Shown here: positions 5,053 through 10,665 of the stretch, one piece after another
Layout: each line of letters starts with the position of its first letter
Numbering within the stretch: the first letter of the stretch is position 1
Virus genome (UHGV): UHGV-0041831
Reading direction: 5' to 3' (one strand)
DNA: 12,454 nucleotides
DNA from: a virus
The notes under the pieces: model-generated
Seen by the model: only the letters and a program-made list of their open reading frames with translations
Told to the model about the DNA's origin: nothing
Databases searched by the model: none
Translations under genes and position numbers: made by a program

Positions 5053-6906
5053 TTATGATGATGCCGGTGCATTTATCTCCAGCACCAGACTTTCTATCTC
5101 AACGCCATACGCTGCATTTTTGGTAATATCCGTCAGCGTCAGCGCATTCAGCCCCAGTGTCAGACTGTCTTTTATGACCTGGAATGCCGGGCCAGCCACT
5201 CCATTCAGTTTCGGAGTAACCGTGGCACTGCCGGCGGTGAACACCAGCTCCAGCGTCTGCCAGTCGTTACTGTAATTCCCGAACTCGCCCAACTTTGTGT
5301 TTCCTGCTTTCTTGTGATGCATCAGATTCAGTTTGCCGTCTGTGGTCTGGGTGAAGAACGACATCAGGAACGGGTTACCAGTCCCGGTCATCGCCACGAC
5401 GTCAGGTAACGCTACATCGGTATACAGATAAATTCCCAGACCGAACTGGTTGTTGGTCAGTGCGCCTGACAGTCGAAACTTACAGCTCAGTCTGCCACCC
5501 CGTGTCAGCAGGGAGACTGCGTCATCCACCGGGCGCGTCAGGGACCAGGCTTTATTGCTCTGCTTGGTGATCTTAAATACACCATCTGACAACTGAATTC
5601 CGCCATTCTTAATGCTCCAGCCCTGCGCAGCAGCGTCTCCGGCTGTCGGCAACAGGGAGATTGTGCGTATGGATGCATCTTCAGACGGCCCCGATGGCGT
5701 GTCGCCGCCGGGCGAGGGTTTGATTTCCGGTGCCTTACCACTAATGAAGGCTAAGGTGCGACCGGCTACGTTCAGAATAGCAGTTGCCATACGATCGGGA
5801 ATAATGCCACGACGCGCCCATGAGCTGAAATGCGTCGGGCGATTTGATGATACCCAGTTTTTGTTCGTTCGGGATGCCGAACCGTAATAACCAGACCCGG
5901 CAATATCAGGATCTTCTGACGGGTTGTTTGTCGGTGTATTAACTCCGCTACCATCGGTCATAAAGGGAACAAAATAAATCTGCTGGGATTCTTTACCTTT
6001 ATATGCACCATATACCACTTCATATTGCGTACCGTGTTCTTGTTTCCACGCGTATGTCGTGTCGCCACAAATCCAGGGGACTGATGCCGGACTTCCACCG
6101 TGACACTGCGCCGCCAGCCCGGCAAGGTCAGCACGGAACTGCTGTACCATTGCAAGAAATGCTGCTGGCTGCTGGGCGTAACTGGCATTCGTCATATCGA
6201 ATTCCCCCTGCATCCAGCATATCGCCAGCAAAACGTTTTTCGGGTTTTTCTGCAATGCTGCCTTCGTGCGGAAAAGCAGATCCTGATATAACGGCTTACC
6301 CACTCCCCAGCGAGCCGAATCCTGACTGGCTCCCGTGGACTCGCTGAATGTCCCCTCCGTGCCCTGGGTGAATGCCGAACCACCACGACAGCATGGTACC
6401 AGCAGGATCCCCGCATTATTAGGGATATACGGAAGCAGTTTTTTGGCAATATGTAAGCCCTGTCCGACACAGCCGTACTGCCCTTTGCTCAGGTCAGCCC
6501 GGGGATGGTTAATCGTACTCATATCCTGAACATCATGCAGACAATGGTCAGCAGGAATGATGTCGTTAAATACGCATACTTCACCACCGGGAGTCACTGT
6601 GTTACGACGGGCCAGTTGCTTAATGCGCGGATGGGGCGCATCGTATGAATCCGGAAGCGGAAGCCCTTCACCGTAAGCCATGGCATTGGATTGCCCGGCC
6701 AGTACGATGACGTAGTACCACTCCGGCTCAGTTGCACCACTGACGACCACATCACCTTCTGCTGCAATCGCCTGCATCAGGGTATAAGGGGTTATGGCCA
6801 CCGGACTACCAAACGGCTGCCAGCCCTCCTTCAGTTTTTGTGTCAGTCGTTTCGCAAGGTCTGACGGCGATGCCGCCCTGACCACGTCATAGTGTTTAAA
6901 TGCCAT
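5053..6906 (-). CDS. Prophage NanS-p-like sialate O-acetylesterase (SGNH/DUF303 esterase plus C-terminal domain)
   Basis: 617-aa ORF with a strong GGGAGG Shine-Dalgarno. N-terminal block VIVLAGQSNAMAYGEG carries the GQSN esterase motif. Size, domain layout and position upstream of the holin match the NanS-p/YjhS-like genes that follow stx in Stx phages, as recalled. Confidence 0.85.
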   Translation of the reverse strand: MAFKHYDVVRAASPSDLAKRLTQKLKEGWQPFGSPVAITPYTLMQAIAAEGDVVVSGATEPEWYYVIVLAGQSNAMAYGEGLPLPDSYDAPHPRIKQLARRNTVTPGGEVCVFNDIIPADHCLHDVQDMSTINHPRADLSKGQYGCVGQGLHIAKKLLPYIPNNAGILLVPCCRGGSAFTQGTEGTFSESTGASQDSARWGVGKPLYQDLLFRTKAALQKNPKNVLLAICWMQGEFDMTNASYAQQPAAFLAMVQQFRADLAGLAAQCHGGSPASVPWICGDTTYAWKQEHGTQYEVVYGAYKGKESQQIYFVPFMTDGSGVNTPTNNPSEDPDIAGSGYYGSASRTNKNWVSSNRPTHFSSWARRGIIPDRMATAILNVAGRTLAFISGKAPEIKPSPGGDTPSGPSEDASIRTISLLPTAGDAAAQGWSIKNGGIQLSDGVFKITKQSNKAWSLTRPVDDAVSLLTRGGRLSCKFRLSGALTNNQFGLGIYLYTDVALPDVVAMTGTGNPFLMSFFTQTTDGKLNLMHHKKAGNTKLGEFGNYSNDWQTLELVFTAGSATVTPKLNGVAGPAFQVIKDSLTLGLNALTLTDITKNAAYGVEIESLVLEINAPASS

Positions 6907-7059
6907 GAATCCTCCCGGGCGGGATAATGTTGTGAGTCAGATAAGGAGCAGGCTGAAGTCCGGAAGTTACAGGACAATGGCAGAAGGGAGACTACAGCCC
7001 GCAATTCGAAAAAGACCGCGCAGTTGCGCAGAGTGATTACTATGGGGTATTATTCGCCA

Positions 7060-7128
7060 GCTGAAATATTACTTCACGTTTTATTGTTTATTCCTTGCCG
7101 CCCGCGTCTCCCAGCGCGGGCTTTTTTT
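7060..7128 (+). ncRNA. Candidate plus-strand short transcript (about 70 nt) upstream of NanS-p
   Basis: Sigma70-like promoter (-35 TTGCGC 7024-7029, 18-bp spacer, -10 TATTAT 7048-7053) followed by a strong plus-orientation intrinsic terminator (stem GCCCGCG/CGCGGGC at 7100-7121, T7 at 7122-7128). No plus-strand CDS explains this terminator. Confidence 0.25.
7100..7128 (+). terminator. Rho-independent terminator, plus orientation
   Basis: GCCCGCG-TCTCCCAG-CGCGGGC followed by TTTTTTT. Confidence 0.6.
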
Positions 7129-7149
7129 GTCCATAAGAAAGCCCCTCCG

Positions 7150-7206
7150 NNNNNNNNNNNNNNNNNNNNNNNNNNNNNNNNNNNNNNNNNNNNNNNNNNN
7201 NNNNNN
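7150..7206. other. Assembly gap (57 N) flanked by identical 28-mers
   Basis: 7122-7149 and 7207-7234 are both TTTTTTTGTCCATAAGAAAGCCCCTCCG. This looks like an unmerged contig-end overlap rather than real sequence. Confidence 0.8.
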
Positions 7207-7217
7207 TTTTTTTGTCC

Positions 7218-7393
7218 ATAAGAAAGCCCCTCCGGAGAGGGGCTAAAGCCGCGTATCTGTATCATCATGCACATGGTGCCGGGTGCCTCCCGGTGAGTTC
7301 AGCCCGGTGCCACTAAACCCGCGTCATTCTCGTTTTGATAATCAGAGATTATACCGTCACCAGTCGCCCCTCCGCTCAGGGGGATTCACCATG
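7218..7393 (-). ncRNA. Tandem unit A: candidate structured small RNA
   Basis: Minus-strand order: promoter-like TTGACA (7432-7437) and TTGTTAAAAAAA, then a 5' block CATGGTGAATCCCCCTGAGCGGAGGGGC, a variable core, a 3' block TCACCGGGAGGCACCCGGCACCATG, then the terminator. 5' CATGGTG can pair with 3' CACCATG; internal hairpins CCCCT/AGGGG and CCGGG/CCCGG. No conserved ORF (frames differ between units A and B). Confidence 0.35.
7225..7244 (-). terminator. Intrinsic terminator of tandem unit A (minus orientation)
   Basis: Perfect 8-bp stem AGCCCCTC/GAGGGGCT with a 4-nt loop, followed on the minus strand by TTCTTATGG. Confidence 0.5.
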
Positions 7394-7495
7394 CGAAATT
7401 TTTTTAACAAATGCCCAGTCTGACAGGCAACTGTCAACTTACTGAATTGTGAGCAACATAGCATTTAACGGGGAACCTGTTTTCTGCAGTAAAAA

Positions 7496-8139: not shown

Positions 8140-8215
8140 TGGTGGCCCTTGCTGGATTTGAACCAGCGACCTGGCGATTATGAGTCGCTCGCTCTCACCA
8201 CTGAGCTAAAGGGCC
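8140..8215 (-). tRNA. ileZ: tRNA with CAU anticodon (Ile2/lysidine type or Met)
   Basis: Manual cloverleaf: acceptor GGCCCTT/AAGGGCC, D-arm GCTC-AGTGGTGA-GAGC, anticodon loop CTCATAA (CAT), T-arm GCTGG-TTCAAAT-CCAGC, discriminator A, encoded CCA. Symbol by analogy with the Stx-phage ileZ-argN-argO cluster. Confidence 0.75.
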
Positions 8216-8264: not shown

Positions 8265-9314
8265 TCAAACGATTAAATCCTGAACTTCCCTGACTGTCTG
8301 CTCAAAACGTCCGGTCTCCAGTTCAACGCCAATCGCACGACGCCCGAGCGCCAGTGCCACTTTTACCGTTGAACCTGAGCCCATAAAAAAATCTGCAACC
8401 AGGTCACCCGGACGACTGCTTGCGCTGATTATCTGCTGCAGCATTTCTGCCGGTTTTTCGCACGGATGTTTCCCTGGATAGAACTGCACCGGTTTATGTG
8501 TCCACACATCCGTGTACGGCACCTGCGCCGTCACACCAAAATACCGCCGCAGATGCTTATATTCACTCTGCAGCTCCACATACTGCCGGTTCAGTGACGT
8601 ATACGTATCCACCAGCTGGTGGTGGGGCTTTTCCAGTTCACCGCGCTGATGTTTCTCTTCTGCCACCCGGGCAAACAGCGACTGTAATTTCAGATAATCG
8701 CTTTCGTTCGGTAGCTGCCACTGACTGGCACTGAACCAGTGCGACACCATGTTTTTCTTTCCTGTGGCATCTGCAATCTGTTTTGCCGTTATCCCCAAGG
8801 CAGCGCGCGCATCACGAAAGTAAGAAATCAGCGGGGCCATCACATGCTGTTTCAGTGCACTGCCCTTCGCCGCATACCCGGCATCTTTCGGACGATACGG
8901 CCCCTGATAATGTTCCGCGAACAGAATGCGCTCTGTGGCGGGGAAATACGCCCGCAGGCTTTCCTTGTTGCATCCGTTCCAGCGTCCGGACGGCTTCGCC
9001 CAGATAATATGGTTCAGCACACTGAAGCGTTCACGCATCATGATTTCGATATCAGATGCCAGGCGATGACCACAGAACAGGTAAAGACTTCCGACAGGTT
9101 TCAGCACCCGCCAGAACTGCGCCAGACACTGGTCCAGCCACTTCAGGTAATCATCGTCGCCCTTCCACTGGTTATCCCAGCCCTCAGGCTTCACTTTAAA
9201 GTACGGCGGGTCCGTGACTATCAGGTCAACAGAATTTTCGGGTAACGACCGGATAAATTCCAGGCAGTCGGCGTTGATTAACTCACAACTGGATATTTTT
9301 ACAGTATTAAGCAT
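8265..9314 (-). CDS. DNA amino-methyltransferase, beta-class (N6-adenine or N4-cytosine), apparently orphan
   Basis: 349-aa ORF. Catalytic motif IV DPPY (IVTDPPYF) is near the N-terminus and AdoMet motif I F-x-G-x-G (FFMGSGST) near the C-terminus, the beta-class order. No restriction endonuclease candidate is adjacent. Confidence 0.85.
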   Translation of the reverse strand: MLNTVKISSCELINADCLEFIRSLPENSVDLIVTDPPYFKVKPEGWDNQWKGDDDYLKWLDQCLAQFWRVLKPVGSLYLFCGHRLASDIEIMMRERFSVLNHIIWAKPSGRWNGCNKESLRAYFPATERILFAEHYQGPYRPKDAGYAAKGSALKQHVMAPLISYFRDARAALGITAKQIADATGKKNMVSHWFSASQWQLPNESDYLKLQSLFARVAEEKHQRGELEKPHHQLVDTYTSLNRQYVELQSEYKHLRRYFGVTAQVPYTDVWTHKPVQFYPGKHPCEKPAEMLQQIISASSRPGDLVADFFMGSGSTVKVALALGRRAIGVELETGRFEQTVREVQDLIV

Positions 9315-9806: not shown

Positions 9807-9868
9807 NNNNNNNNNNNNNNNNNNNNNNNNNNNNNNNNNNNNNNNNNNNNNNNNNNNNNNNNNNNNNN
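9807..9868. other. Assembly gap (62 N) flanked by near-identical poly-A/CCGCC-GACGGC sequence
   Basis: Left flank ...GCATAAAAAAAAAACCGCCCGACGGC and right flank ...GGGGAAAAAAAAAAAAACCGCCTGACGGC are near-duplicates. Probably an unmerged contig overlap in a homopolymer-rich region. Confidence 0.75.
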
Positions 9869-9985
9869 GCGTTTTGGGGAAAAAAAAAAAAACCGCCTGA
9901 CGGCAGTTTTTTTTCTTACTTTGCCATCGCGTACAAAATCGGCAAAATATCAGATTTATACGAAACGTACGCTATTTAATTGACT
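9869..9985 (-). promoter_or_regulatory. Candidate late promoter plus short-transcript terminator module downstream of the Q-position gene
   Basis: Minus strand: -35-like GTCAAT (9979-9984), 18-bp spacer, -10 TATAAA (9955-9960). About 50 nt downstream is a small GC hairpin (9893-9904) flanked by A13 and T8 runs, so it is U-rich in both orientations. Resembles the lambdoid pR'/tR' arrangement; the module abuts the N gap. Confidence 0.35.
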
Positions 9986-10665
9986 TTTGCAATATCTCGT
10001 CGTGAAAAAGTCGCTTTTTGTTGCGCTCTTATTTTCACGGTGCAAATCACAGATTCTCTATCGAGACTCTTAAAAATATCGCACATCTCACGCCAGTAGT
10101 TCGCATAATTATGGCTCCAGTTATCAGGCTTAACTCCACACAGTCTGGCAAGCTCCTGTCTCTGGTAGACCTCACACCCGGTAATCCATCCTCTGACATC
10201 CTGTGCCGCCAGCCAGATCAACTTCTTCACGCGCTCCTGCGTTTTCCCTGCAATTTTTCTGGTGCCGTACCGGGTTTTAAATTCATTCCACACCCACTGC
10301 GTTATCGCGATCTGATATTCCCAACAAATACTCCCGCTGTAACACCACAACAACCAGGCTTTATGATGTTCTTCAAGAGACAGAACAGCCCGCCGCCACG
10401 ATGATGTCGAAAACTCAACCGGACTGACGAGAGGAATTGACACCCCCTTCGCCAGCGATTGCTTTCCCGGGATTGGTGGATTATCCCGCGTTATCATTTT
10501 TCCAGTCACTTCATCGCGGTACCGGATTTTTTTACGCCTGTAACGCCCTGTATCAAACATGGCATTCTCCTGCCAGGCCTCAAGCTGCCCTTTTGTTGAT
10601 CCACTCAAATCGGCGGTGGCAATCATGAGTTGCTCACGAACAAACTGTAAATACTGGTTATTCAT
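9976..10665 (-). CDS. Hypothetical 229-aa protein at the late-antiterminator (Q) position; function assigned by synteny only
   Basis: ATG overlaps the RusA stop (ATGA at 10662-10665), so it is co-transcribed with nin-region genes, and it is followed by the promoter/terminator module. It has no lambda-Q-type CxxC zinc motif, so if it is Q it belongs to a different Q family. Confidence 0.4.
   Translation of the reverse strand: MNNQYLQFVREQLMIATADLSGSTKGQLEAWQENAMFDTGRYRRKKIRYRDEVTGKMITRDNPPIPGKQSLAKGVSIPLVSPVEFSTSSWRRAVLSLEEHHKAWLLWCYSGSICWEYQIAITQWVWNEFKTRYGTRKIAGKTQERVKKLIWLAAQDVRGWITGCEVYQRQELARLCGVKPDNWSHNYANYWREMCDIFKSLDRESVICTVKIRAQQKATFSRRDIAKVN

Follow-up and report, generated by a model that had tools for sequence, protein, structure and literature searches.

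The plus-strand interval of about 7024-7128 in the DNA analyzed here (the window, the whole stretch of 12,454 nucleotides from UHGV virus genome UHGV-0041831) is read, with a probability of about 0.6, as a small-RNA cassette of lambdoid and Stx-type prophages that has been recorded in E. coli O157:H7 strain Sakai as EcOnc08. It is very probable that the locus encodes a base-pairing sRNA dependent on Hfq, and a discrete species of about 70-80 nt is likely to exist. The elements of the proposed cassette, each with the kind of evidence behind it, are the following.

7059..7128, plus strand: predicted short RNA of ~68-70 nt, homologue of Sakai EcOnc08 (homology, CRAC, CLASH, fold)
7100..7128, plus strand: Rho-independent terminator with an 8-pair stem, a 6-nt loop and U7 (fold, shuffles, variants)
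7024..7029, plus strand: putative -35 hexamer TTGCGC of a promoter termed P2 (sequence)
7048..7053, plus strand: putative -10 hexamer TATTAT of P2, 18 nt from the -35 (sequence)

The preliminary description of this DNA had presented the unit as an orphan; it is instead the EcOnc08/21/42 locus, named in 2014, and the window carries a copy of an element that is already recorded, detected and uncharacterized, real and not new. The picture of the field is unchanged by this assignment; the analysis supplies a gene definition (promoter, ~70-nt body, terminator and six sequence types), the main use of which lies in the characterization of EcOnc08.

The window is the region of late regulation and lysis of a lambdoid prophage, similar to an Stx phage but without stx, and every gene in it lies on the minus strand. 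The neighboring features are listed below in gene order.

9976-10665, minus strand: antiterminator Q
8265-9314, minus strand: DNA methylase
8215-7966, minus strand: three tRNAs, also matched by Rfam at gathering thresholds
7891-7701, minus strand: STnc100-family sRNA gene (Rfam)
7662-7489, minus strand: third STnc100-like gene, sub-threshold (Rfam)
7214..7423, minus strand: STnc100-family sRNA gene, convergent partner of the plus-strand RNA (Rfam RF02076, 165 bits, E = 4.8e-38)
7244-7225, minus strand: terminator of this STnc100 gene, facing the plus-strand terminator tail to tail
5053..6906, minus strand: nanS-p, a SASA-family sialate O-acetylesterase (Pfam SASA, DUF1737, DUF6645)
after nanS-p in gene order, minus strand: holin, DUF1327, lysozyme and Rz

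Homologues of the nanS-p gene carry the annotation NanS or SASA esterase. The plus-strand feature sits opposite the 300-nt leader that separates nanS-p from the last STnc100 gene, and the plus-strand RNAs are antisense to this leader. The transcript proposed in the preliminary description as divergent from the late operon is thus in fact embedded in, and antisense to, the Q-dependent late transcription unit. The convergent STnc100 partner (7214..7423) corresponds to the EcOnc05/EcOnc27 class (Tree et al., 2014). The STnc100-family genes form a tandem of three downstream of the tRNAs, two of them clear (136 and 165 bits); the third, at 30 bits (E = 1e-4), has diverged and falls short of the gathering score of 47. 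Sakai Sp4 has a single copy at the same position. Among the tRNAs, the gene with anticodon CAT at 8140-8215 (minus strand) is called tRNA-Met by ARAGORN, and its equivalent in the Sakai prophages is annotated ileZ (tRNA-Ile, presumably lysidine-modified).

The spacing between the two convergent terminators is distorted in the sequence as deposited by the following feature.

7150..7234, no strand: probable assembly-gap artefact, consisting of 57 N (7150-7206) and a repeated 28-mer

The 28-mers on both sides of the 57-N block are identical (7122-7149 = 7207-7234), and the complete genome of strain 118UI, which is 100% identical on both flanks, contains a single copy of the 28-mer and no insert; the N-block is therefore read as an artefact, a scaffold gap whose flanks overlap by k-1 being the most likely cause. 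The artefact adds 85 nt to the apparent spacing of the terminators and creates two spurious ORFs (7024-7221, plus strand, and 7074-7274, minus strand). Once it is removed, the plus-strand U-run lies about 13 nt from the STnc100 terminator stem, tail to tail, so that the back-to-back arrangement with the neighboring terminator noted in the preliminary description holds. A second N-run (62 N at 9807-9868) occurs just downstream of Q and is flanked by two similar, non-identical units, each composed of an A-run and a hairpin and scored as minus-strand terminator-like sites (9904-9892 and 9806-9794); these may form a genuine tandem of tR'-like terminators or reflect an assembly problem at a repeat.

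The best-defined element of the cassette is its terminator. In the DNA it reads GCCCGCGT-CTCCCA-GCGCGGGC at 7100-7121, followed by T7 at 7122-7128, and in the RNA GCCCGCGU-CUCCCA-GCGCGGGC followed by U7. A terminator scan ranks the terminator-like site 7100-7128 at the top of the window. Its hairpin has eight pairs and a folding energy of -15.8 kcal/mol, and the same 8-pair hairpin forms when the 69-mer RNA is folded as a whole (-17.9 kcal/mol, z = -2.96). In 200 dinucleotide shuffles of the window, a run of at least six T after a hairpin of -14 kcal/mol or lower occurred in 1%, and a hairpin of -15.8 kcal/mol next to a T-run was reached in none (0/200). The terminator is real and far beyond chance, as anticipated in the preliminary description of a strong plus-orientation terminator at 7100-7128 with T7, the stem having eight pairs instead of the 7 bp given there. 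The accompanying remark that it has no plus-strand gene to terminate also stands: the only upstream ORF on that strand (6905-7036, 43 aa) is not credible, a Pfam search with its product gave no match, and homologues of this region differ by indels that are not multiples of three.

Comparison among homologues supports both the hairpin and the sequence that precedes it. The 32 distinct RNA variants collected fall into about six sequence types, and per-sequence folding recovers the hairpin and a tract of U6-10 in all of them (32/32). Compensatory double changes are found at three of the eight stem positions (1, 2, and 7), namely G-C to A-U, C-G to A-U, and G-C to A-U or U-A. For this comparison, per-sequence folding and a manual stem register replaced RNAalifold on a MAFFT alignment, the consensus of which was poor because the stems were out of register. 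Upstream of the hairpin the RNA consists of a U-rich, largely unstructured body of 41 nt (19/41 U, 46%), in which ACUUCACGUUUU and UUCCUUGCC are kept even between variants with different stems. The first ~15 nt of the body are variable, and conservation is highest in the 9-mer ACUUCACGU. The U-tail of at least six residues preceded by a U-rich single-stranded stretch, as in base-pairing sRNAs that depend on Hfq, is present. Judged from its sequence, the arrangement of body, GC-rich hairpin and U7 tail has the standard anatomy of this class. In the type D variants (IMG/VR contigs L061 and L026) the motif UUCCUUGC is tandemly duplicated just 5' of the terminator (…UUAUUCCUUGCUUCCUUGCC…).

The identity of the locus was established by comparison with the Sakai O157:H7 prophage loci Sp4 and Sp15, to which it is 92-97% identical (92-95% for the locus as a whole; in blastn alignments, 92.1% with Sp4 across 330 nt and 92.6% with Sp15 across 296 nt). 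The short RNA, taken from its predicted start as far as the U-run, matches the Sp4 copy at 67 of 69 nt (97%). The bases equivalent to window ~7056-7062 in record NC_002695.2 are ~1,180,002-1,180,008 (minus strand) and ~2,924,264-2,924,270 (plus strand). Plus-sense orphan Hfq-CRAC peaks have been reported at these loci as EcOnc08 and EcOnc21 (Sp4) and EcOnc42 (Sp15) (Tree et al., 2014, Table S2; PMC4104026), with the EcOnc08 peak present in five of five datasets (PMC4104026). The coordinates of that table refer to an older Sakai record, and the offsets (+1 for Sp4, +135 for Sp15) were fixed by means of the read sequences in the RNase E-CLASH tables (Waters et al.; PMC5286369). After this calibration the EcOnc08 peak maps to window 7053-7125, that is, from the last base of TATTAT to the U-run, and the EcOnc21/42 peaks map directly upstream of it, to window 6962-7047. 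The latter define an additional feature.

6962..7047, plus strand: upstream segment of a longer plus-strand RNA, equivalent of EcOnc21/42 (calibrated Table S2 peaks)

By the same table and mapping, the peak of the sRNA AsxR begins 3 nt ahead of the RACE-mapped start and reaches the 3' arm of the terminator; edges like those of EcOnc08 are therefore expected from a discrete, Hfq-bound RNA of ~70 nt. The ~70-nt transcript of the preliminary description is in this way upheld in part: Hfq-CRAC and CLASH in Sakai point to a plus-strand RNA of ~7053-7128 that ends at the terminator, while the primary 70-nt start is putative. Its suggestion that the unit could be a small RNA agrees with the binding of Hfq by the 97%-identical Sakai homologues.

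The window copy and EcOnc08/21/42 agree in sequence, in terminator and in location, both being flanked by an STnc100-type sRNA and nanS-p and antisense to the late genes. They differ in that the window copy belongs to a prophage without stx and lies next to a different Q type, and in a few substitutions relative to EcOnc08 (one in the body, one in the loop). A review of 2021 gives EcOnc08/21/42 as "function unknown" (PMC7873438), and a full-text literature search with the RNA sequence itself found no further paper. In the RNase E-CLASH data, EcOnc8 fragments are chimeric with the mRNAs ECs2692, ECs1417, ECs2472, and ECs2888 (PMC5286369). The pairings involve ACUUCACGUUUUG with CAAAACGUGAGGU in ECs2692, UUUGUUGUUU with AAACAACAA in ECs1417, and UUCCUUGCC with GGCGAGGAA in ECs2472; each chimera rests on one or two reads, and the partners are all mRNAs. 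ECs3639 is a further CLASH partner. The experimental evidence as a whole derives from the Sakai homologues.

The proposed promoter P2 (TTGCGC-18-TATTAT) matches the consensus at 8/12 positions (3/6 and 5/6), has no extended -10, and scores under the threshold of the promoter scanner, which does not list it. As sites of this quality occur in the window at about 5.4 per kb per strand, P2 taken alone is not above chance by sequence, and its support comes from comparison with other loci. Of the "reasonable" sigma70 promoter put forward in the preliminary description, the hexamers and their spacing are present, but the match is at chance level when considered in isolation. Both hexamers and the 18-nt spacing are kept exactly in three variants of ~70% identity (phiSTEC1589-Stx1c, AU6Stx1, and 611R1). 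Phage 611R1 has the element ahead of holin S and lacks nanS-p, and homology there is confined to the segment from ~13 nt upstream of the -35 to the terminator. TATTAT stands at the right distance in 125 of 126 viral-contig loci found by means of the RNA body alone, a count that adds little because these loci are closely related. The sequence TTGCGCA is invariant in nine of nine aligned loci, which include cassettes of the AsxR and EcOnc03 types. The -35 hexamer lies inside a small palindrome, GCGCAgtTGCGC, that overlaps a hairpin on the opposite strand.

7016..7031, minus strand: hairpin CUGCGCAACUGCGCGG, then UCUUUUUCG (terminator-like), overlapping the -35 palindrome

This GC hairpin is conserved in Sakai Sp4 and occurs in a shortened form in phage 611R1, and it could be an alternative reason for the invariance of TTGCGCA. 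On the late-gene strand, within the nanS-p leader, it may act as a weak terminator or as an Hfq module.

In about 230 phage records homology is limited to window 6907-7031, and in 69 it extends over the whole unit; the junction between cassette types falls just after TTGCGCAG, at window ~7031. In prophage Sp5 the sequence beyond the junction is AsxR, the primary start of which, mapped by 5' RACE, is located 5 nt downstream of TAAAAT, itself 18 nt from the same TTGCGC. The region is therefore a slot for interchangeable cassettes with a common -35, and P2 lies where the AsxR promoter has been mapped by experiment. If the short RNA starts as AsxR does according to RACE, its +1 would be at ~7059. 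A slot common to the EcOnc08-type RNA and to AsxR/AgvB points to a general "sRNA cassette" site in the lambdoid late leader.

The resemblance to AsxR (RF02703), AgvB (RF02702), and EcOnc03 includes the same slot as plus-strand member of a convergent sRNA pair 3' of PR', at the moron site downstream of Q, the invariant -35 context gcgcaGTTGCGCAg with a -10 18 nt downstream, and a short, Hfq-bound RNA that has an intrinsic terminator and is less conserved in its 5' part, which varies, than in its 3' part. On the other hand, the -10 is TATTAT here vs. TAAAAT there, body and terminator are unrelated in sequence to theirs, the RNA is longer (a predicted 68-70 nt against 51-60 nt for AsxR/AgvB/EcOnc03), and the Hfq signal of the EcOnc08-type RNA in Sakai is ~10-25 times lower than that of the anti-sRNAs. 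The conserved ~42-nt 3' region of the anti-sRNAs (GUAUCUCAUGC..UUGCCCGAACCCAYUCGGGC) is absent here, and no core sRNA partner of the EcOnc08-type RNA has been identified, the CLASH chimeras being all with mRNAs (PMC5286369). Searches of 6900-7260 with Rfam RF02702, RF02703, and Spot_42 gave no match at E <= 10. Membership in the AsxR/AgvB family was rejected on account of the unrelated 3' region, the longer RNA and the lack of an Rfam match.

If the preferred reading is right, the short RNA would be made in the lysogen, independently of antitermination by Q, and would act in trans on mRNAs by imperfect base pairing. The likely pairing segments are the conserved single-stranded ACUUCACGUUUUG, UUUGUUGUUU, and UUCCUUGCC, the last of which is anti-Shine-Dalgarno-like; ACUUCACG and UUCCUUGCC are candidates for pairing with the CLASH partner mRNAs. 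Action in cis on the nanS-p leader is also possible, judging from the complementarity of the RNA to the late-transcript leader along its full length.

An alternative that is unlikely but deserves to be weighed is that only a long RNA of ~271 nt is primary, with a start near or inside the 5' end of nanS-p, that P2 does not work, and that the short species is a processed or Hfq-protected 3' part; such an RNA, running antisense across the ribosome-binding site and leader of nanS-p, would serve mainly to control nanS-p and the late transcript in cis. The Northern probe for EcOnc08/21/42, complementary to GCUAUUGCGCAGAGUGAUUACUGUCGGAUAUUAUU, detected ~271 nt in Sakai (PMC4104026), and the target of this probe corresponds to window 7020-7054, the interval from the -35 to the -10 of P2. 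A longer antisense transcript therefore runs through P2, and the only published Northern used a probe that cannot see an RNA starting at ~7059. Likewise, three CLASH fragments start inside the "-10" of P2 (AUAUUAUUCGCC... or AUUAUUCGCC...), so that a longer plus-strand RNA crosses it, and the EcOnc21/42 Hfq peaks are located upstream of it. P2 has just 8/12 matches, and a better-matching candidate is found further upstream.

6900..6928, plus strand: candidate promoter P1, upstream of P2, with the hexamers ATGCCA-17-GATAAT; it overlaps the start codon of nanS-p

P1 is the only plus-strand promoter match of at least 9/12 within 350 nt upstream of the terminator. It would, however, give an RNA of ~194 nt ending at 7128, which is not the ~271-nt size; an RNA of ~271 nt with that 3' end would start near 6858, inside the 5' end of nanS-p, and no good promoter for it was found near that position. 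The fold of the long RNA is no more stable than shuffles (z = -0.69). Further evidence against the long RNA as the only primary product is provided by phage 611R1, where nanS-p is missing, the unit starts just upstream of the -35 and both hexamers are intact, by the AsxR, AgvB, and EcOnc03 cassettes, which use the same -35 for RACE-mapped primary starts, and by the EcOnc08 peak, which is separate from those upstream, stronger and more reproducible, with its 5' edge 6 nt from the predicted +1. The cleavage motif of RNase E is RN|WUU, and processing at GU|AUUAUU, which fits this motif, could be the source of the 5' end of the short RNA. Nevertheless, a primary transcript from P2 is favored over a processed 3' product of the long RNA as the origin of the short species. 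The long plus-strand RNA probably ends at the 7100-7128 terminator too.

It is scarcely credible that the unit serves only as a transcriptional insulator, in which the facing plus-strand and STnc100 terminators stop convergent transcription and the RNA has no function. The two terminators do lie tail to tail, ~13 nt apart without the gap artefact, as such a device would have them. However, the body upstream of the hairpin is conserved (ACUUCACGUUUU and UUCCUUGCC) where the stems differ, and the homologous Sakai RNA binds Hfq and forms chimeras. Moreover, read on the minus strand the hairpin of 7100-7121 is without a U-tract; the terminator is therefore one-directional and cannot insulate the late operon, which leaves the insulator for the NanS-p/lysis genes suggested in the preliminary description without specific support.

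A link with the sRNA Spot 42 was considered as well. Spot 42 represses the sialic-acid genes nanC and nanT. The 11-mer UUACUUCACGU (7069-7079, plus strand) is an exact match to region III of MG1655 spf, with a single-comparison P of about 0.003, and the best-conserved 9-mer of the body is ACUUCACGU. Region III, which is single-stranded, is a known pairing region of Spot 42 (PMC5991649). The body of the RNA might accordingly mimic a seed of Spot 42, or Spot 42 might target the complementary sequence in the nanS-p leader; if true, the prophage sialate esterase would be plugged into, or would override, a host catabolite-repression sRNA circuit. Such a link is very unlikely. With ~100 sRNAs and two orientations, ~0.3-0.5 such matches are expected by chance, and the 11-mer match is therefore not significant. 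In addition, Rfam Spot_42 gives no match at E <= 10, the motif is absent from the type E variants, and no Spot 42 chimeras with the ECs1088 or ECs2972 leader appear in the CLASH tables examined (PMC5286369). Beyond the common 11-mer UUACUUCACGU there is no overall homology to spf, and promoter and structure are different. The related view that the cassette is an allelic alternative to AsxR/AgvB with a different payload, in which UUACUUCACGU copies the Spot 42 seed or its complement is a Spot 42 site, is just as improbable.

Other known RNAs were compared with the element. At gathering thresholds Rfam returned only STnc100 (twice) and the three tRNAs; the best permissive match in 6900-7260 was OmrA-B (25 bits, below the gathering score of 40), which was treated as driven by the terminator. 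STnc100/PasD (RF02076) is likewise prophage-borne, associated with Hfq and present at the same locus as convergent partner, but it lies on the opposite strand, is ~200 nt long, structured and unrelated in sequence. The Pas sRNAs of EPEC E2348/69 (PasA, PasB, PasC, and PasD) are not this element by sequence or position: PasD corresponds to the STnc100-like partner, and in prophage PP2 of E2348/69 there are 87 nt between PasD2 and the esterase gene, the element being absent. HnrS (EcOnc10/11/12; PMC13502914) is comparable as a multicopy late-region prophage sRNA of 66 nt that is bound by Hfq, has an intrinsic terminator and represses hha (PMC13502914); it was rejected as the same RNA, being a different one, encoded ~5 kb deeper in the late region of Sp9, Sp10, and Sp12.

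The EcOnc08-type region is found in 283-303 phage records, mostly Stx2a and Stx1a phages, and 987 of 5426 complete E. coli genomes (~18%) carry the unit, often in several copies (one to four places per genome). Carriers of the RNA include Stx1, Stx2a, and Stx2d phages as well as prophages of extraintestinal strains. Pattern scans of genome contigs gave no match, and the range seen comprises E. coli and its phages. Several viral contigs (L061, L062, and L074) contain two cassettes of different type, separated by a few kb. In contig L088 (IMGVR_UViG_2526164619_000010) unrelated sequence, which is probably an insertion sequence, breaks the homologue immediately past ...ACUUCACGUUUUG, and the interrupted copy would lose its terminator.
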